DNA from: a virus
Direction: 5' to 3' (one strand)
IMG/VR virus record: IMGVR_UViG_3300035158_000293
Span: 59,799-123,798 of that record
DNA: 64,000 nt
In this document: positions 1-30,520 of the stretch, one piece after another
How positions within the stretch are numbered: position 1 is the stretch's first letter
Layout: the number at the start of each line of letters is the position of its first letter
Notes under the pieces: generated by a model
Told to the model about the DNA's origin: nothing
The model's database searches: none
Seen by the model: only the letters and a program-made list of their open reading frames with translations
Translations under genes and position numbers: made by a program

Positions 1-3000
1 GCCGTCACCACGTCATCTTCTTGGTCGTCGGAAACGAAGAACACCTTTACGGGACCATCCACGCCTGCGGGCATGATCGCTTTGTCATACTCGACACCAG
101 CAATCACGACCCCTGCGTCGAACACTTCGTAGTTGTCGAGGTCTTCGCCATATATGAACTCGTGTTTGCCGTAAACAGGGTAATACGGCAACGCTTCTTC
201 TGTATCGTCGGCTTCTGTCACACTCTCGTTCATGCGGGCCTTGATCCAGCTCTTGAAGCGGCTGTTCTTATCCTTTGCGGACACGATCTCTATTGTGTAG
301 TCGGACTCGAGCTTTTTGATCTCTTTGAGGAGGTCCGCCTTTTCATCCCAAGTATCTCCATCTAAAGCGTGTTTCATTCTCAAAATGTCGGGCCACTCTT
401 CCGACGGTTTGTCTCGCCACTCCATGTAATTGGTTACGTCCTCAAGCTGACTGATCCCTATGAGCAATTCGGACCCTTTGGGAATCTTCAAATCCCGATC
501 TTTTATAATCCACTCGCCCTCGTTCTTGTAAACCTGTCCAATGAGCTTCAATCCCTCTGTTATTTTGCGCTCAAGCTCTTTCATAGGGACTTCGTCCAAA
601 GCATCGGCGAAGCGCTTGTAAGTGTAGTCCTCCTCACGAAGCTTTGGAATGCCGACCTTCTTCAACCACTTTGCAATATCTCGCGGTCCTCGGATTTTCT
701 TGGGCGGGTTTTTTCGGGCTACGTCCGCCAACTTGCTGTGGCCAGCTATGTGTCGATTTTCCATCACAAGTGTTTTGTATTTCGAATCACTCTTGAACGC
801 CTCTATCATGTATTCGAACACGTTGCGGTAAACCTGTGTTAAACCTATCGGGGTCTTGCTCGCGTCAAACAAACGGTAGAGCGCGTCACAATTCTTGGCG
901 GTGAGATACATGGGGTTATCGTACATAACGCGGCTAACGGCGTTCTCTTCAACAAACGCACGCCCCGGCATCTTCAACGCGGCTGACTTGTTGAACAAGT
1001 ATTGGATGTCCTCGGAGCTACTGACACCCGCAGCGCCTTCGAGCCGTCTCTTTTTCAATGACTCAAGGTGAGACGGCTTGTACACGTCGAACGACAGGTA
1101 GAAAAATTCCGGTATGTCCGCGTCGGTGTAAGACGCCTCGACCAATGGCCGACCTGCAAACGTGGCCGTGTGCTCGTTTGTATCACCGTTAGGTAAACCC
1201 TTCATGTTCGTCTCTCCCAATTTATTGGTGCCACTCTCCAAAAGACCACGCTCTTTCAGTTTGTTGTAAGCCTCGTCCCCCAGCTTGTTTGCGATACTGT
1301 ACGGCATGTTCTTGAACACGTCGTTAATTATGTAGCCGGGTTCGGCTGCACCCCGCGAACGTCGGAAGAATGGGAGAAGCTGATCCAGTATGCCGTCTAC
1401 TGTGTGCCACTTATTACTGCTGGGTTTTTCTTTTTTGATCCGCTTGGCAAGCTCGGCAAGTGTGGCCTTGCGTACTTCCTGCGGCTCAAAGAACTGGTAG
1501 TCGAGAAGGCCCGTACCGGAACCCTCGCCGTACTCCTCTATGAACTCCTCACGAGTCATAGGTACAAACTGTCCGTAACGCTCACCTCTGACGTAAACCT
1601 TCGTGATCTGACGAGGTGACACCCGCCCAATGAACAACGCTTGAGGCTCCTGACCCTTGTCCAGTAGTCCGAACGAAACACTCGGTCGGAAAGACTTGGG
1701 GTACGACTTCCTCCAAAGATCGTCCTCGCGTTCCTGTTCTGCCGGGTTTTGACTGAACAGGTCTTTACCCTGCACCGTGAACCGCAGGATAACGGGTCCG
1801 AACTTTTCGGCTGTTTTGTAGTCCGGCGCGACAAACAACCCACGGTCAAGCCGCTTGCCTCCTGAATAGTGCGGGTAAAGACGGTGTGTTGGCTTGGTGG
1901 CGTCGACGCCTTTGCGGACAAACTCCAAGGCGGTTTTTTGGTCTGTGCCGTGGAACAGTTGGAGTTTGGTGTTGGGCCGTAGCCGTGCGATGCTTCCGCG
2001 CTTGCCTTCATGGAGAGCTTCGGATTCCTCCATCCGCTCCCGCGTTCCAACGCCCTCATTCACCAGCCGTAGTTCGCCATGAGGCACGTCAAACGGGTTG
2101 TCGTAACCTTTGTCAACCGTTCGGAACCAAACACGCCTGTCAGAGCCTTCGGCAAACCGTTTGATAGCCGCATCTGTCTTTGCCACGGCCACTACCTTGT
2201 CACCTTCCCTGACGTTGTACAGGTATTTGCCACGGTGTGTCTGCGTAATAATGTAATCACCGGGTGCGGGTGACGACCACCCTTGTGTACTCTCAATTTT
2301 GAGGTTCCTCTGCGCAAGTTCCTTCATGTGTGCCTGCGTCAACTTTTTTCTGCGGGATCGGCGTTTGCGCGGTTTCATGCCGGGTCGCGCATGGCTCATA
2401 GGCACTACCTGCACGTCGGTGATACCGCTTTTCTTCAACCAATTCTTAACACGGGACACCATGTTCTGATCAAGCACCAGCACCTTGTCCAACCATTCAG
2501 GACGAAACTTGAAATCCCCTCCCCGCAACCATTCGTCTTCTTCCGCGTACTGTTCCATGAAAGCGTCGAGCATCATACCGCGCTTGACGTCCCAAAAATC
2601 ACCGACGAGGTAGTCCTCATATTCTTCCTCTTCGAACGGCTCCCCATCTTCATCAAACACACCTCCCTGAGCAGCGGCGGACGCCAACTCGTCGGGGGTT
2701 TCAATAACCCCGCCCTCCGCGTCAAAAAACTCCTCATACGGGAAGGTATCCATAGCCATGCCGTATGCTTGCTCCGCAGCAACATCGGTCATTTCGGGAG
2801 ACTGTGCGAGGACGTATTCAACAGCCGTTGGGTTTTCGTCAAACCAGTCCTCGGTGTAGTGGACCTCTGTAAAGTGTGATTCGAGTGGTTTGCGATGGAA
2901 CGCTAAAATCACATCGTGATGTGTCCCGAACATCCCACCTTCAAGCGGATAAGTCGAAAGGCTGACGAAAGCGGGTCCGCCCATGTATGATGCGTTGGCT

Positions 3001-3104
3001 TTCAACGTCCGGGATTTGAGGATGTCCCTGAGAGCTTTGTAGTGTGTGGTGTGAAAGAAGTGCTTGGTCTGCGCTTCGAACAGAGAAATTCCGCTGTTAC
3101 CCAT
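1..3104 (-). CDS. Large polyvalent protein (>1030 aa, runs off the window edge) with two ADP-ribosyltransferase-like domains
   Basis: Absent from the ORF track because there is no stop in the window. Manual translation is open from ATG 3104 (GGAAGGA upstream) to position 1. Motifs: FFHTTHYKALRDILKSRTL..FVSLS..EEDEW and LFHGTDQKTALEFVRKGVD..RGLFVAPDYKTAEKFG. Confidence 0.7.
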   Translation of the reverse strand, partial: MGNSGISLFEAQTKHFFHTTHYKALRDILKSRTLKANASYMGGPAFVSLSTYPLEGGMFGTHHDVILAFHRKPLESHFTEVHYTEDWFDENPTAVEYVLAQSPEMTDVAAEQAYGMAMDTFPYEEFFDAEGGVIETPDELASAAAQGGVFDEDGEPFEEEEYEDYLVGDFWDVKRGMMLDAFMEQYAEEDEWLRGGDFKFRPEWLDKVLVLDQNMVSRVKNWLKKSGITDVQVVPMSHARPGMKPRKRRSRRKKLTQAHMKELAQRNLKIESTQGWSSPAPGDYIITQTHRGKYLYNVREGDKVVAVAKTDAAIKRFAEGSDRRVWFRTVDKGYDNPFDVPHGELRLVNEGVGTRERMEESEALHEGKRGSIARLRPNTKLQLFHGTDQKTALEFVRKGVDATKPTHRLYPHYSGGKRLDRGLFVAPDYKTAEKFGPVILRFTVQGKDLFSQNPAEQEREDDLWRKSYPKSFRPSVSFGLLDKGQEPQALFIGRVSPRQITKVYVRGERYGQFVPMTREEFIEEYGEGSGTGLLDYQFFEPQEVRKATLAELAKRIKKEKPSSNKWHTVDGILDQLLPFFRRSRGAAEPGYIINDVFKNMPYSIANKLGDEAYNKLKERGLLESGTNKLGETNMKGLPNGDTNEHTATFAGRPLVEASYTDADIPEFFYLSFDVYKPSHLESLKKRRLEGAAGVSSSEDIQYLFNKSAALKMPGRAFVEENAVSRVMYDNPMYLTAKNCDALYRLFDASKTPIGLTQVYRNVFEYMIEAFKSDSKYKTLVMENRHIAGHSKLADVARKNPPKKIRGPRDIAKWLKKVGIPKLREEDYTYKRFADALDEVPMKELERKITEGLKLIGQVYKNEGEWIIKDRDLKIPKGSELLIGISQLEDVTNYMEWRDKPSEEWPDILRMKHALDGDTWDEKADLLKEIKKLESDYTIEIVSAKDKNSRFKSWIKARMNESVTEADDTEEALPYYPVYGKHEFIYGEDLDNYEVFDAGVVIAGVEYDKAIMPAGVDGPVKVFFVSDDQEDDVVT

Positions 3105-3209
3105 TGTTTTGTCCTTCCGTAAAGTGCGGCGGCTTCACCGGAAGGGCCGTTCAAAAAGGACCGTTTCACGGAAGTTACGACCGCGTTCGTGGAATTCGTT
3201 TACCGGTTG

Positions 3210-6200
3210 TTATGCGAGCATGCCGTAGCCGTCACCAACCTCCAAATCACCTTCAGCCGAAACCATCATGGTTCCGCATTTGGGGCACTCCATGCCCCGC
3301 GCGGTTGACTGTTTCGGTCCTGTGGAGTAACCACAGCCCGGACACCGCATGAGCCCCACAGACATCGCAAAACCACCGCTGGAGAAACCACCCGTGCTCG
3401 CAGTTGTAGTGACTTCCTTGAGCCTTTTTGCGGTCTTGCCTGTGAAGCCGCTCTCTTGATACTTCTTGTACGCCAACTTGTCGAACTTGCCTTTCTTGGC
3501 TTCCCTCTCAAACTGATCCCGCATCATCTCTGCGGCTCTCTGACGTATCTGTGGAGTAACGTCGAGATAAGGAATGCCTACAACCTTGGAGGCACCTTTG
3601 TACGCCGCATTGGACAGAGTGAGAAACTTCTTCACCGCCTGCTCGCGGTCGTAGTCACCTTTGGCGACGTGGTTGATCATCGACCTGCAAGCTTGCTGCC
3701 ATGCGGGTTCCGCGGCCATTTGAATCGTTTTGACAATGAAGTCCGCCATCTTCTTACCATACGGCGTTTCTTCATCGCCTTCTCCTTCATCGAGGTGTTC
3801 CACGCTCTCCATGAACATGCGGACCTTGCGCTGTATCTCCGCCAACCGTGCTGTTTTGTCTAATTTGAAATTGTCGTCCTCTTCATCCTCGTCGGGGTCG
3901 TACTTAGGGCGCGTAGCCTTGATAACAGCCATTAAGTCAACCGCCTCGTTCAACGCTTCGGGAAACAACTCACGACGTCGTGCTTTGACCCGTTCTATCA
4001 TAGGCTCCCATGAACCATATCCGGGATCAAGACGCTCACCATACTGACGCAACGTGTCGGGTGTCATGTACCTTTCTTGTCCGCGCTCTTCAAAGCGTAG
4101 TAACACGCGGCAATCACTCCCGTCGCTCTCGTTTGGGCCGTTTACAAACAACAGACCGACACTCTCCAAATGCACCGACGATTCCCCGATGATTTGCATA
4201 GGCCAATTCTGCTTGACGATGGGCAAGTAAACACCCTCGCTGGTTGAAGCGTTTGCACCAAACGATACCTGATTGAACGGCACCGGCTTGTGTCGGCTAA
4301 GGTGTGCAACCTGCCTTGCGAGTTTGGTCTGTTTCGGGGTTGAGTAGTCGAACGTCTCTTGGAGATTTGACACAACGTCAAACCCTTCAACCACGTAATC
4401 TTTCGGCTTATGTGTGTAAGGGGATAAACCAACAGGCAATCCGGTGGGAGGTACGAATGCGTCAGGGTTGTTGCTCAAATACTCCTCCATGTCCTTGCGT
4501 AGTATCTTCATCAAACCCCTCTTGTCGCCATCCTTTTCAGGGTCTGTTATTTGATCGTTGAAAACCTCCATGAAACGCTGCGCCCACCAAGGGTTCTGAG
4601 GCACGGTAAAGAGTGTTTGCTTCTTGGGGTCGTTCAACGCCCGCCCTATTTCTGCAATGCTGTAATTATTCAACTGCGCAGACTCACCGAATAACTCTTG
4701 CAAATACGATAGGTAGTTTTGTACCTCTGGTTTAAGCCCTTTGAACTTCTCCACGGACTCCAAGTAGCTCTCTTTATCGGTCCGCCCTATTTCTTCAATC
4801 TTGTTACCGCCCTCGCTACTAACCTTAACCAACCAAATTTTTTCGTTCCCCTCGGCATCAACTGCGGCGTAATATGCTTTGCGGTATAATTTCCCTTTGT
4901 GTTTACCTACGCCTTCTGTTTCCTCGTACTTCTCTATGGTATCGAAGGTTAGGTTTTTCAAATCCTCAACCGTTCTACTCACACGGTCAGGAATTACAGG
5001 GCTCGACGGCGGCGCGGGAGGGGCCTCTGTAACGGTAGGCTCAGAATCCAAACCCTCACCGGTGATTTTCTTCTTAATCTTAGCATACCACTCACGAACC
5101 TGATCAAAACCTTCTTTTACATCGTTGCCATAGGTAACATACTCGGCAGCACCTTGATCTATATACCCACCGCGATCCTCAACCTCCTTCAACAAGTCTT
5201 CATTATTCCACGGATAGGTCAACGTAAGATTGAACCCTTCCTTGGACCCTGTCGATTTGGTTGCGCTGCGCTGTACTCCCTCGTCTGTAGTGTAAATCCC
5301 AAAGTAAATGCTCGCCGCGTCTAACCGACCTTGATTAACGGCGTTCAACAACTTTGTAAGGTTGACACTAATACCCGCAGGACCAACCTTTGACGTAAAT
5401 GCTTTAGGCTTTGAATCGCTGGGAGAGAGTTTCAAAGCCCCTTTAACGGTGAAGCCGCCCTCGTTTACTACCTGCTCCTTCGGGATGTTGTTCTTGACCC
5501 ACTCGCGCAGCTCAAGGATTTTAGGATCGGTGGCCGCTTCCTTGGAGTCTTTGACAAACTCCGTGTAAACCTTACCCACGGCTTTCATGGCTTCCTTGAA
5601 AGCCTTAACACTCGGCACCGCCTCTATACCCTCGGACTTGAGGTATTCCTCAACCTGCTTTTCAGTCACAACCATTACATCGCCGTCTGGAACTTCAAAG
5701 GCGAACACACGGTGTACCAAATCAAATCCGCCACCATATGTAGGTAAGTCCTCGACCTGCAAACCCGCCCACTTCAACGAGAAGTCGCGGCCTGCCTCTT
5801 CACTTTTCAAACCCATGCCTTCAACCGCATCACCAGAGATGATCTTCACGTTGACTACAGGCTTGACTATGGGAACCCCGTAATTTGAGAACTCTTGTGT
5901 TGTAGCCTGAGTCTCCCCGTACTGAGAAGCAAACTCCGCTATCTTGACTTGCTTTTCGTCCGTATAGGTATCGGCTTCTTGATCTGCCGGTTTTTCGGCT
6001 TCTGTATCTGCCATAGCGTCGTCTTGTGTAGCGCCGGGTTCCAGATCAGGCTCCCCGGTTTCTTCGGGCGTTGGAATGTCCAACTGTTGCTCTCCGGGTA
6101 CGCCTTCGACGGGCCACATGTCACCGTCCTCATACATATCGAGCAACTGATCATCCCAAACGTGGGTCAGCGTGTCCTGCCCAAGTAGATACAGCAAATA

Positions 6201-8039
6201 GAGAGGATCACCGTCAGGGTCGTTAATGACCGCGTAGATGTACGCCTTATTACCCGACGTATCGGTAACGTAATCCTTCAATTTGACCGGGCTTCCGTTC
6301 GCTTTGGCTGCCTTTGCAAAGTCGGTAGTGTGGATATTAACCATCTCAACACCGGCTTCAGCAATGTCTTGCAATTCCGGCTGTGTCGCCACGTAAGCTT
6401 CGACCTCTGTACGACGGATGTCGTCAGAAGGAACGTCAACCTCTGTCTCGGGGACCGCGGAACTGGGTAGAGAAGCCCCGACGTAATCACCCCACTCGGT
6501 GACAACTTTGTTCGTCAACTTCGACAGGCTGTGAATGTACTTTTTCAGAACGGCTTTGATGGACTTCTCGCTCGGCATGACCATCCAATCGCCAAGCTTG
6601 TCCTGCCATTTGCCGTTGGCCTGCACCGTATAGGTTGCGAAAGGTTTCCCCTGCTCCACACCGAAGCCACGAGTCTCCACCGTCATGGTGTTGTACATCT
6701 CGCCGGTAGCTCTCACAAGGAACTCAACGCGCAGATGTGGGAGCCCGACGCCCGGACCATAACCGGGGTCTTTTTGTGGTTCAACGTAAGCCACAAGCAC
6801 CGCTGTGTCGGGTTGCCCTCCGGTTTTCGTAGTGTTCGTTTTTTCCACCGCCACAATAACGGGGAAGGAACCACCCAACTTGATCGTGTCGGGAATGTTT
6901 CCAGACTGGGCAAGTCGATCAGCCACGGGCTTCAACGCCTTGCGTAACGCGGGTTTGTATCGCGCCAAGAGCTTTTCCAACTCTTTCACGGTGTACTTCT
7001 TTTTAAGCCCTTGTTTGCGACGGTGTTTCGTCTTGAAGTAGTACTTCTTGGGGAACTTCTTGGCCTTGGCTTCATACAACGCAACAAGATCAGACCTGTC
7101 GTACAGACTTTCACAAATGCGAGCCTTTGCACGAGTCAATTGCGTGCTTGACATTGAGTCAAACCGCTCCCGCAGACGCTCTATGTCTTCTGTAAGCGGT
7201 GTCCAATTCTCTGCGTCCGTAGTCACCCATCGAACCTTTTGGGCATCCTCTGCCACCACCCTGATTCGACCACCTATACGATGAAGCTGTGCTTGTTCCA
7301 AATCCACGTCGAAGAGGTGCTCCACAAGCTTGCCAGCGAGCACCTTTTCAACCACGGCCTCCTCATATTTCTTCATGGTGTCTTTCGCCAACTCCGGCTC
7401 TTTTTCTGGCTTCTTGTCTTCTTCCTCCTCTTCGCTACCTTTGTCTTTCTTTTTTGTCGCGGGTCCGGGACGTCCACCCTTGACGGGCTTGCCTTCAAGG
7501 ATAACCACATCAGACACCACCCCGTCTTCGGGAGCCACCGAACCACCATTCACCAGCATATCGAAGGTTGCGATGCTGCTCGTAGTGCTTCTCAGACGCT
7601 CAAACTCCATATCAGACCACTTGCCCTCGAAAATAGCGAGGAAGGAACTACTTCCGGGGCGTACCTGCGTCTCCACGAATTTCTCATACAGGTCACGACG
7701 CTTGGTTAAAAGAAAGGTTTCAAATTCCAGAGCGGCCATGCCGGTGTCAGAGTTGGTGTACGTGGCGTCCTTCTCTATGAATTTCTTGGCAAACTCACGA
7801 GCATCGACGCTCCCCAAAGCAACCGCTGTCTCCGTGATCAGATCAATATATGCCGCCGGATGTGCAACCGTCTCGCCCGTGATTGTAGTGGGAAGGTCAA
7901 GCCTGTCCCGCATGTCAGCGATGCGATCATAGAGAGAAACGTCGAGCTTGTCCACAAGGTCCGCCTCCAAGCGGCCTTCTTCAAGAGCTTGACGCAGACG
8001 TTTGCCTGAATACAGCGTGCATTTGGGTTGGGCCTTCAT
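3210..8039 (-). CDS. 1609-aa hypothetical protein, probably virion/internal head protein, with C-terminal Zn ribbon
   Basis: Long ORF with GGGAGG RBS, acidic linkers, many (L/I)xE motifs and C-terminal CPGC..CPKC. Confidence 0.6.
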   Translation of the reverse strand: MKAQPKCTLYSGKRLRQALEEGRLEADLVDKLDVSLYDRIADMRDRLDLPTTITGETVAHPAAYIDLITETAVALGSVDAREFAKKFIEKDATYTNSDTGMAALEFETFLLTKRRDLYEKFVETQVRPGSSSFLAIFEGKWSDMEFERLRSTTSSIATFDMLVNGGSVAPEDGVVSDVVILEGKPVKGGRPGPATKKKDKGSEEEEEDKKPEKEPELAKDTMKKYEEAVVEKVLAGKLVEHLFDVDLEQAQLHRIGGRIRVVAEDAQKVRWVTTDAENWTPLTEDIERLRERFDSMSSTQLTRAKARICESLYDRSDLVALYEAKAKKFPKKYYFKTKHRRKQGLKKKYTVKELEKLLARYKPALRKALKPVADRLAQSGNIPDTIKLGGSFPVIVAVEKTNTTKTGGQPDTAVLVAYVEPQKDPGYGPGVGLPHLRVEFLVRATGEMYNTMTVETRGFGVEQGKPFATYTVQANGKWQDKLGDWMVMPSEKSIKAVLKKYIHSLSKLTNKVVTEWGDYVGASLPSSAVPETEVDVPSDDIRRTEVEAYVATQPELQDIAEAGVEMVNIHTTDFAKAAKANGSPVKLKDYVTDTSGNKAYIYAVINDPDGDPLYLLYLLGQDTLTHVWDDQLLDMYEDGDMWPVEGVPGEQQLDIPTPEETGEPDLEPGATQDDAMADTEAEKPADQEADTYTDEKQVKIAEFASQYGETQATTQEFSNYGVPIVKPVVNVKIISGDAVEGMGLKSEEAGRDFSLKWAGLQVEDLPTYGGGFDLVHRVFAFEVPDGDVMVVTEKQVEEYLKSEGIEAVPSVKAFKEAMKAVGKVYTEFVKDSKEAATDPKILELREWVKNNIPKEQVVNEGGFTVKGALKLSPSDSKPKAFTSKVGPAGISVNLTKLLNAVNQGRLDAASIYFGIYTTDEGVQRSATKSTGSKEGFNLTLTYPWNNEDLLKEVEDRGGYIDQGAAEYVTYGNDVKEGFDQVREWYAKIKKKITGEGLDSEPTVTEAPPAPPSSPVIPDRVSRTVEDLKNLTFDTIEKYEETEGVGKHKGKLYRKAYYAAVDAEGNEKIWLVKVSSEGGNKIEEIGRTDKESYLESVEKFKGLKPEVQNYLSYLQELFGESAQLNNYSIAEIGRALNDPKKQTLFTVPQNPWWAQRFMEVFNDQITDPEKDGDKRGLMKILRKDMEEYLSNNPDAFVPPTGLPVGLSPYTHKPKDYVVEGFDVVSNLQETFDYSTPKQTKLARQVAHLSRHKPVPFNQVSFGANASTSEGVYLPIVKQNWPMQIIGESSVHLESVGLLFVNGPNESDGSDCRVLLRFEERGQERYMTPDTLRQYGERLDPGYGSWEPMIERVKARRRELFPEALNEAVDLMAVIKATRPKYDPDEDEEDDNFKLDKTARLAEIQRKVRMFMESVEHLDEGEGDEETPYGKKMADFIVKTIQMAAEPAWQQACRSMINHVAKGDYDREQAVKKFLTLSNAAYKGASKVVGIPYLDVTPQIRQRAAEMMRDQFEREAKKGKFDKLAYKKYQESGFTGKTAKRLKEVTTTASTGGFSSGGFAMSVGLMRCPGCGYSTGPKQSTARGMECPKCGTMMVSAEGDLEVGDGYGMLA

Positions 8040-8170: not shown

Positions 8171-9079
8171 CTAGTCCCACTCCACCTGTTCCGTCTTGTC
8201 CATGAAGGTCACGCCAGCAGGCCACTTTTCGGGGACCATTATCATGTAGTCCGTGAAAACTCGCGGGGAAAGAACATCGTCTTTCAACGCCACCTGCACG
8301 GCCTCGAACAGGTGAAACGCTTGGCAATTCCCCAAGGTGTCGGCATGCTCCCACACAAACAACCGACGTGTAGACATACGGCCTCGCCCCGCCGACCGGC
8401 TAAGGTCGAACATGTGGATGATGGCTTCCCACAGAGCATCCAAATCGGCGTAGGTAAAGCCTGTGTCTGCGGCGAGCATGGGGTTGACGAAACCTTCTGC
8501 GACGTACAAACCGTAAGGGATCGTGTACTTGGAACCCATCTCCGTCTCGCTTTTGTGCGAGTCCGTTTTCTCCTGCGTAGTGTACGCCACCCGCGTGATC
8601 ATGTGGTTTTTGATCAGAACACGGCTCACCGACCGAGCATCTGTTATCTGTACCGGCCCTGTAACTTGTCCGTTGTTGAACGCCGTAGTGCTCATTACCG
8701 CACCGAACGCCCGTACATCGAAAAAGTTTGCGCACATCCAATCCCGCGCCTGCGCAATGTCGTCCTTTGTGGCTTTCTCGGGGTCGATTTTCAAATTATC
8801 GTAGGACATCCTCTGACGACTCTCGAGAGCGTGCCCCGCCAGCACGAAGATGTCCTGCCCCTTTTCGACTTTACCGCCTTGCGAGTGCTTGTAGTAGTGA
8901 AAGTCCCGTATCTTGCGCTTCAGGCTTCCGTTGGAAACAAGCCCTTGAAATGTTTCCGGGTCCGTCCGTGGAGCGTTGTTGAAATCGGGATCACCGTTGG
9001 GGTTTCCGTCCACACAATCGAACATGATGAGAAAATCGTACCGCCGGTCAACTACCTTGTCACGTTTGGCGTCTGCCAT
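8171..9079 (-). CDS. cas7c: Type I-C Cascade backbone Cas7c (Csd2)
   Basis: RRYDF..DCVDGNPNGDPD.NNAPR.DPET..GLVS...LKRKIRD; FFDVRAFGAVM; GPVQ; EMGSKYTIPYGLY; SRSAGRG. Confidence 0.95.
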   Translation of the reverse strand: MADAKRDKVVDRRYDFLIMFDCVDGNPNGDPDFNNAPRTDPETFQGLVSNGSLKRKIRDFHYYKHSQGGKVEKGQDIFVLAGHALESRQRMSYDNLKIDPEKATKDDIAQARDWMCANFFDVRAFGAVMSTTAFNNGQVTGPVQITDARSVSRVLIKNHMITRVAYTTQEKTDSHKSETEMGSKYTIPYGLYVAEGFVNPMLAADTGFTYADLDALWEAIIHMFDLSRSAGRGRMSTRRLFVWEHADTLGNCQAFHLFEAVQVALKDDVLSPRVFTDYMIMVPEKWPAGVTFMDKTEQVEWD

Positions 9080-9133
9080 TTTGTGATCCTTTCGTTTTTT
9101 GTTTGTTTCAACCTTTTTTTTTCAACATAACCC

Positions 9134-9605
9134 GTTTTCAATCCGCGCACATGTGCGAGTGTTACTGTTGGTGCGAGTGTTGGATTTGAACCCTTCACAG
9201 TTTTCAATCCGCGCACATGTGCGAGTGTTACCTCACCCATGCGATGGGCTGTGGCAGAATGTTTTCAATCCGCGCACATGTGCGAGTGTTACCCGGTATG
9301 ATCCGTCTCTCCCTTTCAATCCGCGCACATGTGCGAGTGTTGCTGTGATAAACTATCGGTCTGATCCTGTCTTTCAATCCGCGCACATGTGCGAGTGTTA
9401 CCACCTGACCGCTTTTCCTTTTTTCAATCCGCGCACATGTGCGAGTGTTACCAATGGACGCTCATCCAGCTTGCAGTTTTTCAATCCGCGCACATGTCCA
9501 AGCGTTACTTTATTTTCAATCCGCGCACATGTACGAGTGTTGTCATGTCCTCCATGATCGGCTCAACTTTGTGTCTTTCAATCCGCGCACATGTGCGAGT
9601 GTTAC
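9134..9605 (-). CRISPR. CRISPR array with 9 type I-C-like repeats and 8 spacers of 34, 29, 19, 26, 18, 25, 3 and 30 bp
   Basis: Plus-strand consensus GTTTTCAATCCGCGCACATGTGCGAGTGTTAC (32 bp, first 2 nt variable) starts at 9134, 9200, 9261, 9312, 9370, 9420, 9477, 9512 and 9574. The reverse complement ends GGATTGAAAAC like I-C repeats. Confidence 0.95.
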
Positions 9606-10027
9606 TGGCTTTCGGTAGTTTCCGTTTCGGCCTCCTTTCTGGCGATAGCTTCCTCTGCCTGCTGTCGATCATGGGCTTTTTGGTGGTAAAAACCGACGGC
9701 GAAAAGCGCCTGATCTTCCGGGCTTTGCTGTGTCGGGAACCGCTCTATTCGATTCATTACGTCTGTCACCCGCTGGTCAATCGCGTGGCCTGCCGCCACA
9801 ATCGCGGGGTTGCGTGATCTCTTGAGTTTCGCAATGTGGTAGCGAGCCTTCGGGTTCATCTCGGAAAAAGCTTGATCCGGTACGACCGCGGCGTTACGGA
9901 AAAACTGCTCGGCAACCGTCCGCTGTATCTTGAAAATGGCTTTGTACTGCAAAGTGTCGTAGATAGCCAGCAAACGCCCACACAGGTAGGCGGGGTGGTT
10001 ATTGTTGTGGTCCAATTGCGCTTCCAC
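9602..10027 (-). CDS. cas11c: Cas11c small subunit from an internal in-frame start within cas8c
   Basis: GAGGAGG-GCAAC-GTG in frame, just before LDHNNNHPAYLCGRLLA. This is the known position of hidden Cas11 in I-C systems. 141 aa. Confidence 0.75.
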   Translation of the reverse strand: MEAQLDHNNNHPAYLCGRLLAIYDTLQYKAIFKIQRTVAEQFFRNAAVVPDQAFSEMNPKARYHIAKLKRSRNPAIVAAGHAIDQRVTDVMNRIERFPTQQSPEDQALFAVGFYHQKAHDRQQAEEAIARKEAETETTESQ

Positions 10028-11446
10028 GTTGCCCTCCTCTAAATCATTCAAACATACCCGCAGAAGTGCAAGTTTCTGTGACGCCCTCTGCATAGGGTCA
10101 GTACAAAAAATCCTTTCCAACAACCGTGAGAGCACTCGTCGGTCGAGCGGTTCGTTGAACAGCGCCCGCCACACCAAACTCTGCTGGATGTGGTCCTCTG
10201 GACTTTTACCTTTTGTCGCCGCACCCTCCATTGCGGGGTCTGCAAGTGTTTTTTGTAGTTTCCACAATGCGGGCGCTCGAACAAAGCGTCCGCTGTAGGG
10301 GCTCTGAACTCGCACGTCGTGGAACCATTGCCACACGTTTTCGTATATCTCCCCTATGGTGTTGTCATCGTACCGCCGCACGATCATGCGGGACATGTTC
10401 GCTGTAACGGTAAGTGAGTGAAAGCGCAAATCCGTAACCTGTGGTAGTGGTTCCGATTCTGTTCCTGCACCAAAAACTTGACACAACGTCAAACCCTGCT
10501 TCGGAGCATCCAGAACAGCACTTACAATGTCCGGGTCGGGGTTGTTCACGAACTCCATCGGAGGGTGTAAAACAGGTTCGTCGGTCCAGCACAGTAGTGC
10601 CGCGCCCCGGATATTGTATCGCGTTCGCACCTCTTTCTCGGACCTGTACCGGAGCAGATCGTTCAACGCCATAACATACGCTTTGGATGCTCGTATGCTC
10701 ATCGGGCAGTTTTGATTTTGTTTCCATCCAAACGACTCGAACGCCGCACGATTAAACGATATGAGCGATACACCCGAAGGCATACCCCCGATATTGGTGC
10801 AATGTTTGATTTTATCGTGCGTCCGCGACAACGGTCCATACTCCCCCGTCACAATACAGTATCCGTGCCCCGCGGAAGCGTGGCGTTCGAAAACACCCTC
10901 CTCGTAGTAATCTGCCCAATACTGTCGCAGGGCCTCACGCTCGACCACAGGTTCAGGTGAAGTGCTTCCGGGGATTGCGCAGTATAACGCCAACCGATTG
11001 TTGGCTACAACACCTCGTTCAACAGCTAACTCTCTGGCCTTTTTGACCACTTCGGGGTCCGCATAGAACGCCACACACGCCTTAACCGCTGGATCGTCGG
11101 TAACGTCTGCGATTGTATTCCACAATTCAACCGAGGCAACGTGACGTTCGTTGTGATTTCGCTCTTTACCTTCCGGTGTCCATGCGGGGTCCGCCCCCAA
11201 AATATACTGCACCGCGTCGCACCCCGGTAGTGGGTACAACCCGCCGGACCTGTGGTGCGGAGATTTGGGGGCTGAAAGGGTTGTTTGACCTTCCGGTGCA
11301 ATATCTTCAAAAGGCATAATGTCCACAAGCCCGCCTTTTGCATCGAGAGCAACTACGAAGTGTACCAAACCCTCTTCAAACGCTGGGTTGTTCAACTCGT
11401 CAGACAGGTTGCTTTCCGCATAGGCACACAAAGCCTTCAAATACAT
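9602..11446 (-). CDS. cas8c: Type I-C large subunit Cas8c (Csd1)
   Basis: Lies between cas5c and cas7. Motifs CIVTG..RTHDKIK, GVSLISFNRAAFESFG..Q, AYVMALNDLL, PAYLCGRLLA, FAVGFYHQ. Start moved to MYLK at 11446 (GGGGGG RBS). Confidence 0.92.
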   Translation of the reverse strand: MYLKALCAYAESNLSDELNNPAFEEGLVHFVVALDAKGGLVDIMPFEDIAPEGQTTLSAPKSPHHRSGGLYPLPGCDAVQYILGADPAWTPEGKERNHNERHVASVELWNTIADVTDDPAVKACVAFYADPEVVKKARELAVERGVVANNRLALYCAIPGSTSPEPVVEREALRQYWADYYEEGVFERHASAGHGYCIVTGEYGPLSRTHDKIKHCTNIGGMPSGVSLISFNRAAFESFGWKQNQNCPMSIRASKAYVMALNDLLRYRSEKEVRTRYNIRGAALLCWTDEPVLHPPMEFVNNPDPDIVSAVLDAPKQGLTLCQVFGAGTESEPLPQVTDLRFHSLTVTANMSRMIVRRYDDNTIGEIYENVWQWFHDVRVQSPYSGRFVRAPALWKLQKTLADPAMEGAATKGKSPEDHIQQSLVWRALFNEPLDRRVLSRLLERIFCTDPMQRASQKLALLRVCLNDLEEGNVEAQLDHNNNHPAYLCGRLLAIYDTLQYKAIFKIQRTVAEQFFRNAAVVPDQAFSEMNPKARYHIAKLKRSRNPAIVAAGHAIDQRVTDVMNRIERFPTQQSPEDQALFAVGFYHQKAHDRQQAEEAIARKEAETETTESQ

Positions 11447-12147
11447 CGCAATTCCCCCCACGCCTTCCTGTCCAAAACCACGAAGGGGTCTGTATTGATG
11501 ACCCCATCACGCATGACCGCTCGGTAGAACACGGGCGTGTTGTGGCCGTTTTCCCTGTAGACGATGCCGTACAACATTGTCCCCAAATCCTTCGTGACAG
11601 GAATGGGGGTGCCTTCATCGCCTGTCAGACACGTTATGTTTGCGGCATACTCTCGACATCCGAGGTACGGTTGGTGAAACTGTTGCCCCTCCCGTAAGCG
11701 ACGCAGGAACATCTCCTTGTATTTGGTCGGTCTGCTCTGTTTGTCCGCTCGATGAACCTTCGGATATGCCGTCACAATGTAGTCAACGTCCCGCAAGATT
11801 CGCCCTGTGCGGTTTGTTGTGTGCCTCGCTTGTCCCGCACCGCCCGGCTGTGGTCGGTAGGTGGAGGGGTCGCCCATCCACCGCTTTACCGTGCGCGGAG
11901 CAACTTTATTGAGGAGTTCGTTCGTCGCAAAGCTCTGCCATTTGATGGGTTTCAACACCGCAATGCTGGTGATTATCCAAATGAATTCGGGCTTCCCGAG
12001 GATAGCCCGCAGAGCACCGCGTAGTGCAGACGGTGTCGGCACCTCGTAGGATACTCGTTCAGCCTTCCCCTCGGGTCGTGTGAAACACGCCAAAGCCCCT
12101 CTGATCCTCACCGTTACGCTCGCGTGTTTTTGTCTTGTGGTAGTCAT
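11437..12147 (-). CDS. cas5c: Type I-C Cas5c (Cas5d), crRNA-processing subunit
   Basis: GALACFTRPEGKAERVSYEVPTPSALRG, KPIKW, NEL, LRDVDY, PYLGCRE, DLGTML. Start at MTTT 12147 (AAGGGGG RBS). Confidence 0.95.
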   Translation of the reverse strand: MTTTRQKHASVTVRIRGALACFTRPEGKAERVSYEVPTPSALRGALRAILGKPEFIWIITSIAVLKPIKWQSFATNELLNKVAPRTVKRWMGDPSTYRPQPGGAGQARHTTNRTGRILRDVDYIVTAYPKVHRADKQSRPTKYKEMFLRRLREGQQFHQPYLGCREYAANITCLTGDEGTPIPVTKDLGTMLYGIVYRENGHNTPVFYRAVMRDGVINTDPFVVLDRKAWGELRCI

Positions 12148-12169
12148 GCACACCCCCTTTTTTATTTTT

Positions 12170-12198
12170 AGTTTACCCGGTGGAGCGAGTTTTGTCAA
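12170..12198 (-). promoter_or_regulatory. Sigma70-type promoter of the cas operon
   Basis: TTGACA-17bp-TAAACT with T-rich upstream tract, about 22 bp before the cas5c ATG. Confidence 0.8.
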
Positions 12199-12239
12199 GA
12201 AAAAGCAAGAAAAAAATTTAGGCGCACATGCAATCACGG

Positions 12240-12659
12240 TCAATAAGTGCGTTCCTGAAAGGTTTGGCGCATTCTATCTACGACAAATTGGATAACGTGC
12301 TCCATTAAAGAACGTATAACCAACTGTCCGTGCTCCTCCAACAGCTCTTTGGCGGCTTGTGACACAATTTCGCTACCCCAACTGCCAACGCTCGCACCCC
12401 CACTCGTACCTTCGCTATCCAAGTACTCCTTAACAGCTTCCTTGAAGTAGTCTCGCACCTCTTCCTTGATCATTTCCCGTAAAAGTGAAGGCTTGCTCTC
12501 ACCGCCTTTTTTGCGGGGCTTGGTGAATTCTTCGATCTCTTGCTGGATTATCTGGTTCCGAGTGTCTTCGTCCATCGTTTCAACAAGGCTCTCGCGAATT
12601 GCTGCTTTCACACGAGAAGACCACACATCCGCAAGGTCTGGTTTAACATTGTAACCCAT
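12240..12659 (-). CDS. Hypothetical protein
   Basis: ORF with GGAGG RBS before MGYN. Confidence 0.6.
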   Translation of the reverse strand: MGYNVKPDLADVWSSRVKAAIRESLVETMDEDTRNQIIQQEIEEFTKPRKKGGESKPSLLREMIKEEVRDYFKEAVKEYLDSEGTSGGASVGSWGSEIVSQAAKELLEEHGQLVIRSLMEHVIQFVVDRMRQTFQERTY

Positions 12660-12705
12660 GACTACCTCCTTCATGTTTGTTCCACAAAACGCGCACAGCC
12701 GTAGC

Positions 12706-18341: not shown

Positions 18342-18414
18342 AGCTGGGGATGGGAATTGAACCCACAACCCCCGGTTTACAAAACCGGCGCTCTGCCAAT
18401 TGAGCTACCCCAGC
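18342..18414 (-). tRNA. tRNA-Thr(TGT)
   Basis: GCTGGGGTAGCTCAATTGGCAGAGC; anticodon arm CCGGT-TTTGTAA-ACCGG; GGTTCAATTCC. No encoded CCA. Confidence 0.95.
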
Positions 18415-18424: not shown

Positions 18425-19411
18425 TTATGCAGGAGGACTCCACCTAGCGGCGCTGTAACCTAGCGGCGCTTGGACGCCCATACAGGCACTACCATAACAG
18501 TCCCCTTGCGGGAATGAGGTCCACGTTGGCAGAAAGACGGTATATACTCCTAACACCAACGACGCCTTAAGGCTGTATTGATCATTAACACCGACCAAGA
18601 CACCATCCCCTACGTTATTCTCGTCTCGGTAAATACGCAAGCCAAGGTCCGGGATCACACCCGCGAGACTACACCAACTGTCTGATGTGAGGTCGCCGGG
18701 ACTTTCTGATGGGATGAACCGCTCGCCAAAAGCGTCTTGGATTTGGAGGCAAACCTCTGGACAAGCGAGGGCCCAATGCCCGCACGTATGACGTGTTCGG
18801 ATGCAGAGACTACTTTGCGCACCCTCCAACACAGAGACCATGTCGTTCCCCGTCTCAAAGTCGCGCTTCCCGATACCTCGAAGTGCTTCCTCGAACACGC
18901 ACCGTCCAACTAACTCAACTAGACTGTCGGTGCTCACGGTTTCCAAAGATTTACCCTGTGGCGGTCTTAGATGTGTCTGTCGGGTTGTTATGTTATCGCT
19001 TCCGATTCCCAAATCGACACTCGGTTCGCCCGTCTCGCTTTGATAGGTCCGGTACGTCGCGTAGACTACCGGTGCATACCACGGCCTTACTGTAGGCTGG
19101 ATCGAGAACAGAGCAGCTAGAGGACTTAACATTAAAACACGGGTGGTGACATCAAAAATCTGTTCCGGCGTTAGACCTCCAAACTGTTTATCTGCTTCCT
19201 GCAACTCGATAATGCTTGGACCCCTCTGCTGTAACGTCCTTTTTGTATTCTCAAGAATAAGTGCTACTGCCGAAGGTGAGAGCAAACTTACTTCCTCGTG
19301 CGGCTCCACGAACTCCCGCCAACCCCCTTGTTCCACGCTCATCTGTGCCAGCTTTGCCCCTGTTTCTGAAAGTGGGGTGTACGCGCCAACCGCTTTGCTT
19401 ACCAATTTCAT
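18425..19411 (-). CDS. Divergent T4 gp23/gp24-like capsid protein paralogue (tentative)
   Basis: ALILEN, LQEA, RVLMLSPLAALFSIQPT and WALACPEV resemble gp23-family motifs. AGGAGG RBS. Confidence 0.45.
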   Translation of the reverse strand: MKLVSKAVGAYTPLSETGAKLAQMSVEQGGWREFVEPHEEVSLLSPSAVALILENTKRTLQQRGPSIIELQEADKQFGGLTPEQIFDVTTRVLMLSPLAALFSIQPTVRPWYAPVVYATYRTYQSETGEPSVDLGIGSDNITTRQTHLRPPQGKSLETVSTDSLVELVGRCVFEEALRGIGKRDFETGNDMVSVLEGAQSSLCIRTRHTCGHWALACPEVCLQIQDAFGERFIPSESPGDLTSDSWCSLAGVIPDLGLRIYRDENNVGDGVLVGVNDQYSLKASLVLGVYTVFLPTWTSFPQGDCYGSACMGVQAPLGYSAARWSPPA

Positions 19412-19427
19412 ACTACCTCCTGCTTTT

Positions 19428-19922
19428 TCAGCTTTCGCCTAAACGCTCTTCCCAGCGCTCAAGACATGTGATGATTTCGTTGATCTTCTGGCTGAGGAAG
19501 CCGCTCCCCTGACACTTCTCAGGCACACCCACGCCCTGTGGACGTAGTTCTTCGGAGTCTTGGGCTTCTGACTCGGCACAGGCTTCGTTTTGTTTTTTAA
19601 GCTTTGCGGCGGCCTCCTGTGCCGCTTCTTTCTCCGCGTACTCTTCGCATAGGCCGTGGACCTCATTCATGAGACTTATCCACTCCCCAGCGTCTGCTTC
19701 GGGGCCGTTTTCGATAAAGGGATCAATCTCGAAGTCGAACAAGGCGTTGACTACACCTGTAATCTCTTTGAGAAGAGTGGTACGCCGTTTGAACTCCCTG
19801 AGAATCTTGACCAGTCGCTCGTCCGCGCCGTCGGCAGCGATCTGGCTTGAACACTTTGTGCAAACCCCTCCGCAACATTTGGCCAACTCGCCACAGATCG
19901 AGCACCTCGTTAGCATAGTCAT
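19428..19922 (-). CDS. Hypothetical protein with N-terminal Zn finger
   Basis: CSICG..VCTKC; AGGAG RBS. Confidence 0.55.
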   Translation of the reverse strand: MTMLTRCSICGELAKCCGGVCTKCSSQIAADGADERLVKILREFKRRTTLLKEITGVVNALFDFEIDPFIENGPEADAGEWISLMNEVHGLCEEYAEKEAAQEAAAKLKKQNEACAESEAQDSEELRPQGVGVPEKCQGSGFLSQKINEIITCLERWEERLGES

Positions 19923-19991
19923 CAGAACGCTCCTGCTTGCTTGGCTGTTTCCAACTTTCGGAGGATTTCCTGCACAGCTATTGACACAATG

Positions 19992-20771
19992 TCAATCCTC
20001 AGCCTCTGCCACTTGTAGTCTACGGAGGATTTCGTCTCTCCCCGGCTTGCAAACGTCCTGCAAAGGCGTCACCTCGGCAAAAGACAAAACTGCGCAGGTG
20101 TGACACTTGCGGTCTTCATCATACAAACACGCGGGACAGTCCGGGTTGCACACAACCGGAGTAGGGGCAGTTACAGGTTTGGTGTGTTTGGTTATCTCCA
20201 TCTTCTTCCCGCCGTTGATCTCCACCTTCATGGTGAAACTCACACCAGCATAATCCGCCAAACCTCCTGTAGTCAGTTGCTTTTGTACGGGTGTATGCGG
20301 GGTTTGTTGTGCAGGCCCTCGCGGAGCAGGTGCAGTATGGCGCATACAACGATTATCGAGGTAAACACGTATGTTCGAAGAGTGACACTCGGGGCAAGCC
20401 CGTTTTGCCGCTTCTGTTTCTTCAACCGTTTCCTTCTCCCACCAAACGGTGACTGTTTCACAATCTGCACAGTCCGTTCGAAAAAGCTTTTTGCTCTGCG
20501 GCATCACCATACTCCAATCCACGTCTTCCAACAGCAAGTAGTAAGCACAGTCAGGGTTATGGGGTCCGGCATCGTCGTAATCCCAATCGTAACCGGGCTT
20601 CTTTATTGCACAACTGCCGCAATAGCGCTCCTGCTCACACCAATACGCTGTCTGTTCTGTCACAATGCGCTTACACCCGTCGCCAGCACACTTGTACAAC
20701 CGCTTGTGTTTAGGATCGGTCACTACCCTCGCTGTCTCGTTCTTCTTCCGATCCGGTTTCGGGTTCCCCAT
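19992..20771 (-). CDS. Cys-rich multi-Zn-finger hypothetical protein
   Basis: Several CxxC pairs; GAGGA RBS. Confidence 0.6.
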   Translation of the reverse strand: MGNPKPDRKKNETARVVTDPKHKRLYKCAGDGCKRIVTEQTAYWCEQERYCGSCAIKKPGYDWDYDDAGPHNPDCAYYLLLEDVDWSMVMPQSKKLFRTDCADCETVTVWWEKETVEETEAAKRACPECHSSNIRVYLDNRCMRHTAPAPRGPAQQTPHTPVQKQLTTGGLADYAGVSFTMKVEINGGKKMEITKHTKPVTAPTPVVCNPDCPACLYDEDRKCHTCAVLSFAEVTPLQDVCKPGRDEILRRLQVAEAED

Positions 20772-24590: not shown

Positions 24591-24711
24591 CGGGACTCAA
24601 ACCCTCTACAAGAAGTGTACAGCATGATTCACACATGTGCAACCATAAAATCTACTTTTTACAGCATGGCCGGGGTGATATGCAAATAATACATTGACGT
24701 TGTGTCAACAT

Positions 24712-24744
24712 AAAAAGACGCCGTTGGTCGGGCAACCAACGGCG
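24712..24744 (-). terminator. Intrinsic terminator
   Basis: CGCCGTTGGT-TGCCCG-ACCAACGGCG followed by TCTTTTT. Confidence 0.8.
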
Positions 24745-24822
24745 CGGCGGACCTATTTCTACCGTAACGAGCTTGTGGTGCTGTCTCCTGTGAGGAGATG
24801 CAGAGCCAACATATATAATATA

Positions 24823-25476
24823 TCACATCCAACGGGGTTTGTCAAGTGGAGGACTTAGTAAATGGAAGGTTTCGCCGTGAGGTCTATCCCACGCCTTATC
24901 ATAAGTAAAGAAGGCGTAAAGGGTTGAGTCAACTTTACCATCTCCGGTAAAAGATGGTCTTTTTGACACAAACGCCATGTGTCTTGGGAATATCTCCTCT
25001 TCGTGGAACTTACGGCGCGAATCAGACTCCATCCACGCAGCTCGTAACAGCAGTAGCACCACGCCGTCGTCTTTCGTAACAGCAAGGCACTTACGAACGA
25101 AAGGCAAAAGAATTTCGGAAGAGTACGGGGGATTGGTAGCTACAACATCGAACTTGAATTCCGGGGGTGCCCACTTCAAAAAGTCTGTGCAGGTGTCACA
25201 AACGTCGAACAGCCCTTTTGGAGGGGACACCTCTCGAACATCCACACCACGCACTTCGCACGAGGGCCAACGTGTCTTAACCACTTGTGCAAAAGGTGCG
25301 TGATCACCACACCCCGGCTCCAAAAATTTTTCGGGTGCGGTTTGTAGAGGAAAAGCATCGAAGAAGGACTGAACCAACGCCAACGGCGTCTGGTAATTGT
25401 CATTGGCTATGCGTTTGCGCTTGGGTTCTTTCTTAACAGGTTTCTTGACCCGCTTAGGTCTTTTGTGTACGCGCAC
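24823..25476 (-). CDS. DNA N6-adenine methyltransferase
   Basis: DNYQTP, FLEPGCG, DFL, VATNPPY, LLLR, RPSFTGDGKVD..YAFF. Confidence 0.85.
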   Translation of the reverse strand: MRVHKRPKRVKKPVKKEPKRKRIANDNYQTPLALVQSFFDAFPLQTAPEKFLEPGCGDHAPFAQVVKTRWPSCEVRGVDVREVSPPKGLFDVCDTCTDFLKWAPPEFKFDVVATNPPYSSEILLPFVRKCLAVTKDDGVVLLLLRAAWMESDSRRKFHEEEIFPRHMAFVSKRPSFTGDGKVDSTLYAFFTYDKAWDRPHGETFHLLSPPLDKPRWM

Positions 25477-25520
25477 ATCGCCCCCTTTTGTCTTTTGAAC
25501 TCCTACGTCTGTAGGTTTGG

Positions 25521-27461: not shown

Positions 27462-27501
27462 GCCATCTCCGCACGAAACAAGGGAAATTCACACAGCTAT
27501 T

Positions 27502-27930: not shown

Positions 27931-27938
27931 ACGGCCTC

Positions 27939-30215: not shown

Positions 30216-30256
30216 GACAACCCCCTAATCGACTCGATTGGTGTAGTTATTATGGT

Positions 30257-30517: not shown

Positions 30518-30520
30518 CTG

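Follow-up and report, generated by a model that had tools for sequence, protein, structure and literature searches.

A phage-borne type I-C Cascade operon with an internal CRISPR array and no cas3 on the recovered contig

Gene complement and layout of the cas operon

The 64,000-nucleotide stretch of DNA analysed here (hereafter, the window) comprises bases 59799-123798 of the 123,798-bp IMG/VR record IMGVR_UViG_3300035158_000293, a phage contig that carries nearly all of its open reading frames (ORFs) on the minus strand. On that strand, between window positions 8171 (the cas7 stop) and 12198 (the first base of a promoter-like site), lies an operon that encodes the subunits of a type I-C CRISPR effector complex (Cascade) and encloses a CRISPR array between cas8c and cas7 (Table 1). 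All the parts listed in a preliminary description of this locus, in the order promoter, cas5c, cas8c with an internal cas11c, array and cas7, are present, and its claim of a complete Cascade gene set is borne out by the identification of Cas5c, Cas8c, the internal Cas11c start and Cas7.

All three Cas proteins score above the curated NCBIfam cut-offs for type I-C, with nearly the whole profile covered in each case. The cas5c product matches Pfam Cas_Cas5d (PF09704; E = 2.5e-24) and TIGR01876 (133.3 bits against a cut-off of 85), and Cas8c matches TIGR01863 with 314 bits (cut-off 218.65) over profile positions 1-583 of 588. The nearest solved relatives of the three subunits belong to the Desulfovibrio vulgaris and Neisseria lactamica I-C Cascades, those of Cas5c being PDB chains 8dex_A and 7kha_A (E of about 1e-38). 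Each gene of the operon is preceded by a Shine-Dalgarno (SD) sequence, and the cas8c ATG (11446) overlaps the end of cas5c by 10 nt. The database gene call for cas8c is the 614-aa form, and a longer cas5c frame that opens with TTG at 12243 is probably unused.

The solved Cas11c chains 7kha_K, 9jhb_B and 8g9s_H align within residues 483-595 of the phage Cas8c, residues 4-113 of 7kha_K being matched to residues 484-595. A GTG codon that corresponds to Cas8c residue 479 lies 5 nt behind the SD sequence GAGGAGG, that is, the internal start is found where the solved chains, which align from residue 483/484, would lead one to expect it, so that the small subunit Cas11c is very probably made from this GTG. 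Such an internal start within cas8c, reportedly described by McBride and colleagues in 2020, is said to be the rule in type I-C.

The sigma-70-like promoter upstream of cas5c is putative, being a match to the consensus, and the region contains 10 promoter-like sites compared to 2.9 +/- 1.6 in shuffled sequences; no such site was called in the 55-nt leader that separates the last repeat from cas7. A 144-aa ORF (12240-12674, minus strand) ends just upstream of the cas promoter and shows a sub-threshold match to the ribbon-helix-helix fold (E = 0.0085; 16.5 bits, cut-off 20.5); judging by this match, it could encode a small DNA-binding regulator.

Table 1 Features of the type I-C operon (window coordinates)
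Feature	Position	Strand	Details
Promoter-like site	12170..12198	-	Putative; TTGACA-17 nt-TAAACT, 10/12 consensus matches; 22 nt upstream of the cas5c ATG
cas5c	11437..12147	-	236 aa; pre-crRNA endonuclease subunit; ATG at 12147 behind GGGGGTG
cas8c/csd1	9602..11446	-	614 aa from ATG; 619 aa from an upstream GTG at 11461
Internal cas11c	9602..10039	-	Predicted 141-aa product in the cas8c frame; SD GAGGAGG 10039-10033; GTG 10027-10025
CRISPR array	9135..9605	-	9 repeats of 31 nt, 8 spacers; between cas8c and cas7
Repeats 1-5	9575-9605, 9513-9543, 9478-9508, 9421-9451, 9371-9401	-	
Repeats 6-9	9313-9343, 9262-9292, 9201-9231, 9135-9165	-	
A-rich leader	9080..9134	-	55 nt; SD AAAGGA; separates the last repeat from the cas7 ATG
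cas7/csd2	8171..9079	-	302 aa; backbone subunit; TIGR02589 280 bits, cut-off 182.25

An irregular array with a weakly folding repeat

The array is joined to the preceding gene such that the TAA stop codon of cas8c sits within repeat 1. Seven of the nine repeats differ from the commonest form at no more than two positions and the other two at three; repeats 2 and 3 are degenerate and are separated by only 4 nt. In array order, the spacers are 31, 4, 26, 19, 27, 20, 30 and 35 nt long, and spacer 8 contains, in its second half, a 12-nt copy of the 5' part of the repeat. Outside the array, no further copies of the repeat were found in the 123.8-kb contig.

Spacer lengths taken modulo 6 are scattered, and it is doubtful that guide lengths are tuned to the 6-nt step of Cas7, because no 6-nt steps are observed, one spacer is 4 nt long and spacer 8 contains a repeat relic. 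The irregular spacers look like deletion scars, and in our reading, the array is a fixed, inherited set of guides that was shaped by deletion and recombination and is not refreshed by Cas1-Cas2.

The 3' part of the phage repeat, ...GGATTGAAA, is common to bacterial I-C repeats, and the handle, that is, the stretch from the hairpin to the repeat end, is 11 nt long; the last base of the repeat is A or G. The predicted fold of the repeat is markedly weaker than those of the 45 comparator repeats (-4.7 kcal/mol vs -10.8 to -22.2, with a median of -16.2). An Rfam search yielded no match to a CRISPR-DR family, the sole match being a sub-threshold microRNA (miRNA). Spacer 8 was also considered as a mimic of a tRNA 3' end and rejected in this capacity, given that two of the five T-stem pairs are possible and that it matches none of the five tRNAs of the phage.

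Comparison with other type I-C loci

The locus was compared with those in nine viral contigs that encode a distant Cas8c (23-27% identity in an alignment-based scan) and in bacteria, the latter being represented by the best 80 of at least 585 loci. Because contig ends cut off the remainder, cas8c and cas7 can be seen together in 7 of the 9 viral loci and in 77 of the 80 bacterial ones. Their matches lie 20-133 nt apart in viral and 8-232 nt apart in bacterial loci, whereas this phage has 522 nt between cas8c and cas7, of which the array accounts for 471 nt. None of the 84 comparator loci shares the unusual cas8c-array-cas7 arrangement, for which the preliminary description had proposed a synteny survey. 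The comparator arrays start 2-3 kb past cas7, after the adaptation genes.

The spacers differ as well. Among the 1181 spacers of 51 comparator arrays, 1121 are 32-37 nt long and 10 are shorter than 31 nt, with length defined as the repeat spacing minus the length of the consensus repeat, a measure that is imprecise at the ends of arrays and incorrect for one locus, whose consensus is truncated. In the phage array, five of the eight spacers are 27 nt or shorter. All 45 usable comparator repeats end in C, a count biased by the detection pattern, which favoured C or T at this position. The traits of a canonical I-C array, namely, location outside the operon, spacers of 32-37 nt and a GC-rich hairpin repeat ending in ATTGAAAC, do not describe the array found here. 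Within one of the distant I-C operons on IMG/VR contigs (L008, positions 11654-12685), the cas7 match falls into two parts with 226 nt between them, which may reflect an insertion or a frameshift.

We found no close relatives of Cas8c or Cas7 in IMG/VR. Among 5.8 billion proteins, the best relatives are 62% identical for Cas7 and 36% for Cas8c, and the nearest lineages by Cas7 are metagenome-assembled genomes (MAGs), one of Myxococcales and others of Acidobacteriaceae/Bryobacterales, at 50-55% identity.

Absence of cas3, adaptation genes and helicases from the contig

Family searches covered all six frames of the whole contig at E values of up to 1, with Cas7 as the positive control (matched at 7.7e-86). 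They yielded no match to the Cas3 core (TIGR01587) or the Cas3 HD domain (PF18019), to Cas1, Cas2 or Cas4, to Helicase_C, ResIII, the DinG-type Helicase_C_2 or UvrD_C, or to TniQ and rve. The lack of cas1, cas2, cas3 and cas4 from the 64-kb window that was pointed out in the preliminary description thus holds for the entire contig, as does the lack of a transposase as judged by TniQ and rve, and the search for cas3 and cas1 beyond the window that it called for found neither gene on the recovered 123.8 kb. On each side of the operon, at least 52 kb contain neither cas3 nor adaptation genes.

The same picture emerged when the neighbours of bacterial I-C operons were used as tblastn queries against the phage. 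From the 80 bacterial loci, we took 64 ORFs of at least 500 aa upstream of cas5c, a sample of which consisted of Cas3 with HD and helicase core in five cases out of five, and 304 ORFs of at least 80 aa downstream of cas7. The best matches of these 368 ORFs reached E values of 1e-4 to 2e-4 (32-37 bits) and fell on unrelated genes.

Maintenance of the Cas proteins

Several features suggest to us that the proteins are maintained rather than decaying. In the phage Cas8c, each of the 17 columns that are invariant in a 34-sequence alignment is retained. Divergence of the subunits follows the proportions seen in bacteria: in phage-bacterium pairs with 50-56% Cas7 identity (n = 9), the median identity is 31.4% for Cas8c and 47.1% for Cas5c, compared to 31.4% and 45.3%, respectively, in bacterial pairs within the same band of Cas7 identity (n = 807). 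The GC content of the operon matches that of the phage genome. Furthermore, a 15-bp palindrome-like motif, TTGACACAAYGTCAA, occurs at 13 sites in the window with at most one mismatch, against 0.03 expected, and one exact copy (10478-10492) lies within the cas8c coding sequence, which suggests that the cas operon is embedded in a phage-wide lattice of such sites.

The catalytic triad of Cas5c has been given as Tyr/Lys/His, with only the Lys invariant (PMC8524198; the triad is also given in PMC3973291). This Lys is retained in the phage protein (K142; K in 71 of 73 bacterial Cas5c), and the residues at the other triad positions, L50 and Y143, are shared with 18 and 40 of the 73 bacterial proteins, respectively.

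Search for targets and a host

The protospacer adjacent motif (PAM) of type I-C is given as TTC (10.1101/2022.06.15.496202). Within the phage contig, we detected no self-targets above the level of shuffled sequences, either full-length or seed plus TTC PAM. Partial self-matches of the kind expected at a promoter were likewise not in excess, with 3 seed matches of at least 11 positions against 0-7 in 20 shuffles, and no seed match of at least 10 positions within the contig was accompanied by a TTC PAM. Against cultured phages and plasmids, the array yielded only matches with E values of 2-6, and spacers 1 and 7, the only ones scanned as patterns against IMG/VR, had no matches.

The whole array was further compared with 1,220 bacterial genomes in sets of 401, 401, 401 and 17, drawn from the phyla of four Cas8c-bearing genomes. 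In two of the sets, 5 and 8 genomes were matched at a per-genome E value of 0.05 or lower, where about 20 per 401 are expected by chance; the other two sets had no matches at E values of 0.005 or lower. The best array match in these sets overlaps a repeat, and in five Cas8c-bearing genomes themselves, repeats only were matched. A 21-mer of the repeat had no matches in either viral contigs or genome contigs. Its single match in metagenome contigs was dismissed as a chance occurrence, being an isolated palindromic hairpin that lacks the remainder of the repeat.

The phage and the neighbours of the operon

The contig encodes a T4-like portal protein, ribonucleotide reductase (RNR), ThyX, ParB, tail fibre and tail-fibre chaperone domains, a family-A DNA polymerase (PolA) with UDG and exonuclease domains, a RecA-like protein, an SbcCD-like pair and a 5'-3' exonuclease. 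The portal is at most about 30% identical to those of cultured phages, and 46-52% identical to those in five IMG/VR fragments. The record is classed as linear, with a CheckV completeness of about 75%, and the left end of the contig falls within an ORF. Superfamily 1 and 2 (SF1/SF2) helicases are absent across the approximately 124 kb in the six-frame family search; given the presence of PolA and recombination genes, this absence suggests that the replication block lies in the missing DNA, that is, a replicative helicase/primase block probably sits in the unrecovered part of the genome.

The neighbours of the operon belong to no Pfam or PHROG family. Directly downstream of cas7 lies a 1609-aa ORF (3210-8039, minus strand) with two CxxC pairs at the C-terminus of its product. 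We considered it as a partner of Cascade and rejected it in this role: Pfam, PHROG and the Atlas gave no lead, and the N-terminal part is kept in three out of three related phage fragments that lack Cas7, with residues ~51-292 being 29-35% identical to ORFs in these fragments. Altogether, three of the five related fragments carry a homologue of this N-terminal part. The methylase gene upstream has no counterpart in the related phage fragments.

Elsewhere, a 516-aa protein (contig 19071-20621) has a C-terminal Tad6 domain (4.5e-27), an inhibitor of type I Thoeris, and is thus a counter-defence gene product. Two giant minus-strand ORFs of 3524 aa (contig 24624-35198) and 3604 aa (contig 52088-62902) have no Pfam match at E values of 0.001 or lower; window positions 1-3104 are the end of the latter. 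A 959-aa ORF (40812-43691, minus strand) that adjoins the portal gene may, going by a weak, sub-cut-off Pfam match to an intein-splicing domain, encode an intein-bearing terminase. The contig also encodes a 1101-aa protein with a Zeta_toxin/AAA_33 kinase-like domain (contig 1255-4560), a 371-aa protein that matches the clostripain family (Peptidase_C11; window 48255-49370) and five minus-strand tRNAs (window 18342-18414 and 61531-62229), Thr-tgt, Leu-tag, Phe-gaa, Lys-ttt and Gln-ttg.

Discussion

With less than even confidence, we tentatively favour the interpretation that the operon provides a self-contained and non-adaptive Cascade that acts without a nuclease by binding to its targets, with Cas5c cleaving the mRNA of the operon. 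We infer that a single transcript would run from the putative promoter at ~12170-12198 through cas5c, cas8c with the internal cas11c start, the nine-repeat array and cas7. Cas5c would cut this transcript at the 3' base of each short repeat hairpin. The products would be CRISPR RNAs (crRNAs) whose 5' handle is 11 nt long, a message for cas5c and cas8c with its end in the hairpin of repeat 1, some 17 nt beyond the stop codon, and a separate cas7 message that begins with an 11-nt handle followed by the 55-nt leader. The crRNAs would then assemble with Cas5c, Cas8c, Cas11c and Cas7 into Cascades of unequal length, and these complexes would bind DNA without cutting it and thereby keep targets in the host or in rival mobile elements from being transcribed or replicated.

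Given that neither Cas3 nor a substitute helicase nor adaptation genes are encoded on the recovered DNA, action by DNA binding is most likely. The preliminary description had spoken of a complete binding-only Cascade. The completeness of the gene set holds, whereas the term binding-only depends on cas3 being absent from what is an approximately 75% complete contig. The proposal of that description that Cas5c cleaves the mRNA of its own operon is supported on condition that Cas5c is active. The array is co-oriented with the genes and abuts both of its neighbours, and cas7 has no convincing promoter of its own, so that Cas5c, if active, must cut the operon transcript. The weak repeat hairpin fits an array that has to be read through for cas7 to be expressed. 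The further suggestion in the preliminary description that the complex recruits or sequesters Cas3 of the host is pure inference.

Several observations weigh against this interpretation. The absence of cas3 is established for a linear contig of about 75% completeness, and cas3 could share the missing DNA with the replication block; if Cas3 is supplied, the spacers of 30-35 nt are long enough for ordinary interference. The array shows erosion, with a 4-nt spacer, a mutated hairpin arm in repeat 3 and the repeat relic in spacer 8. Cas5c departs from the bacterial consensus at A42L, W51G and R75T, positions where 73, 68 and 73 of the 73 bacterial proteins, respectively, have the replaced residue, and W51G adjoins the triad; the repeat hairpin is no more stable than its own shuffles. 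Given these departures and the unstable hairpin, crRNA processing may be poor. The lineage is a singleton, with no relative close enough to reveal whether the layout is conserved, and Cas7 is found in none of the five related phage fragments (2-53% complete), three of which carry the homologue of the gene downstream of cas7, so that the operon is an accessory insert rather than part of the core of this phage group. Finally, with no target in the sequences searched, the guides may be obsolete.

The alternative that survives best, on balance unlikely but to be taken seriously, is ordinary interference for which Cas3 is provided in trans, encoded either in the approximately 25% of the genome that was not recovered or in a host I-C locus, whereby at least the spacers of 30-35 nt would direct the degradation of rival or host DNA. 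The CheckV estimate and the left contig end within an ORF leave room for such a gene, and the lack of any helicase alongside a set of replication and recombination genes indicates that this class of genes is evidently out of view. Three spacers (31, 30 and 35 nt) are near the normal range, the 11-nt handle matches those of four bacterial comparator repeats (L016, L040, L048 and L089) except for the last base, and the use of host Cas proteins by phages has been suggested by Al-Shayeb et al. (PMC7162821). However, cas3 is directly upstream of cas5c in five of the five sampled bacterial loci, and most bacterial loci have an ORF of 500-1100 aa in this position, whereas here, at least 52 kb on either side are devoid of cas3. 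No known Cas8c exceeds 36% identity to that of the phage, which makes the compatibility of the latter with a host Cas3 uncertain, the same repeat is present in no genome searched, and five of the eight spacers fall short of the length that a canonical system would produce or typically use in its guides.

We strongly doubt a second alternative, counter-defence by mimicry, in which the subunits and repeat RNA would soak up components of a host I-C system (crRNAs, Cas3 or Cas subunits), or else would direct the repression of host cas or defence promoters, in the manner of Cracrs, which are viral crRNA-like RNAs, or of Racrs, which are viral repeat decoys (PMC10651486). The spacers of 19-27 nt fall within the range of viral regulatory pseudo-spacers, for which medians of 19 nt (I-F Cracrs) and 25 nt (CreA/CreR) are given in the same study that reports nine two-spacer Cracr arrays directed against I-C (10.1101/2024.10.29.618823); phage biomimicry of the dCas9 type has been published (PMC10910872), and a Tad6 counter-defence domain is encoded by the same phage. 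Nevertheless, the published Cracrs and Racrs, as presented in that study (10.1101/2024.10.29.618823), depend on Cas proteins supplied by the host and were looked for away from cas loci, whereas a phage with its own Cas5c, Cas8c and Cas7 has no need to hijack those of the host. Moreover, seven of the nine repeats are near-identical rather than degenerate, and neither a host, nor a host promoter target, nor a matching host repeat turned up in the genomes and contigs searched.

Least probable of all is that the operon is a decaying bacterial passenger without function or that the array was misplaced in assembly: although the 4-nt spacer, degenerate repeats 2 and 3, the relic in spacer 8 and a singleton lineage with the operon in no relative would suit such an origin, the three ORFs are full-length with intact signals and normal proportions of divergence, the composition is phage-like and a phage-specific motif lies within cas8c, and misassembly is unlikely given that arrays are misjoined within repeats, an error that cannot make spacers shorter, and the junctions are tidy, with repeat 1 on the cas8c stop codon and repeat 9 located 55 nt from the cas7 start.

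The preferred interpretation of a nuclease-free Cascade can be extended such that the intra-operon array becomes the regulatory circuit of a phage-borne, self-contained CRISPR-interference device, which combines coupling, hairpin adaptation, cas7 throttling and small silencing Cascades; we consider this extension decidedly unlikely. With the array inside the operon, each guide-making cut by Cas5c would also part the cas5c-cas8c/cas11c message from that of cas7, so that the cuts would tie guide output to subunit supply. The weak hairpins would be adaptive in that they allow transcription and translation to proceed as far as cas7. The cas7 mRNA would carry a Cascade 5' handle 55 nt, or about nine Cas7 steps, from the start codon, and the assembly of Cas5c and Cas7 on this handle could throttle cas7 translation. 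The short guides, in turn, would give rise to small Cascades that silence promoters of host defence or rival phages without a nuclease.

If the preferred interpretation of DNA binding by a self-contained Cascade is true, the operon is a natural, compact (~4 kb) programmable DNA binder that serves a virus and can do without a nuclease, adaptation genes and a promoter specific to the array. It would then provide a test of whether Cas3-less type I Cascades of phages silence rather than cut, whether the size of the I-C complex follows spacer length and whether crRNA processing doubles as the processing of an operon mRNA, and it would add an I-C case to the family of regulatory CRISPR RNAs with short spacers. 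Should the unrecovered part of the genome contain cas3, the locus would reduce to a rearranged, otherwise ordinary phage I-C system.

Relation to known systems

The canonical I-C systems of Desulfovibrio vulgaris and Neisseria lactamica (7kha, 8dex, 8g9s) have the same Cas families in the same 5-8-7 order, no Cas6, an internal Cas11c, the common ...GGATTGAAA 3' part of the repeat and an 11-nt handle after the hairpin. Unlike these systems, the phage operon has no cas3 upstream and no cas4-cas1-cas2 downstream, and its array is internal, with spacers of 4-35 nt rather than 32-37 nt, a repeat whose last base is A or G where theirs is C, and a much weaker hairpin.

A Cas3-less I-C Cascade of a phage is, as such, of an already known kind. 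According to Al-Shayeb et al. (2020; PMC7162821), almost all CRISPR systems of huge phages lack Cas1, Cas2 and Cas4, with interference genes missing from many of them; in the type I-C variant described there, a helicase replaces Cas3, Cas1 and Cas2 are missing and repression without cleavage is proposed, and, according to a figure legend, the active-site residues of Cas5 are partly non-canonical. The present operon resembles that variant in being phage-borne, in its Cas5d-like processing subunit and in the lack of adaptation genes, and differs in that no ResIII, Helicase_C, DinG or UvrD helicase is encoded on the contig, of which ~124 kb were recovered as opposed to genomes of >200 kb. Altae-Tran et al. 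(2023; PMC10910872) describe an incomplete I-C system without Cas3, with a Cas8-Cas5 fusion, which is proposed to bind DNA. It shares with the phage operon the stand-alone, Cas3-less Cascade for which binding is proposed; here, however, Cas5c and Cas8c are separate proteins encoded with a 10-nt overlap, and there is an irregular array within the operon. Type IV systems and CRISPR-associated transposons likewise have a Cascade-like effector, carried by a mobile element, that lacks both Cas3 and adaptation genes, but the phage contig encodes no DinG-type helicase, TniQ or rve, and its subunits belong to plain I-C families.

Short-spacer CRISPR RNAs provide a parallel to the array. Viral crRNA-like arrays with pseudo-spacers of 17-22 nt redirect host Cas proteins, according to Liu et al. 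(10.1101/2024.10.29.618823), who report that short spacers lead to complexes with fewer backbone subunits and that such guides bind without cutting. Mini-arrays of the CreA/CreR type are located between cas genes in I-B, I-D, I-E and I-F, as described by Shmakov et al. (10.1101/2023.03.03.530964), in whose main text I-C does not occur (0 occurrences). The likeness to CreA/CreR and Cracrs lies in repeat-spacer units between cas genes and in shorter spacers, the viral representatives being small arrays as well. Those elements consist of one to three pseudo-spacers with degenerate flanking repeats and a partial match to a promoter, and the viral ones need the host's Cas proteins, whereas the array described here has eight spacers, seven of nine near-identical repeats, its own Cascade and no partial self-target above chance. 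We found no published array between cas8c and cas7 or elsewhere within an I-C operon, supplementary tables aside. What is new here, then, is a full array within the operon and fused to the cas8c stop codon, the combination of irregular short spacers with a weakened repeat, and recovered DNA that encodes no helicase whatsoever.

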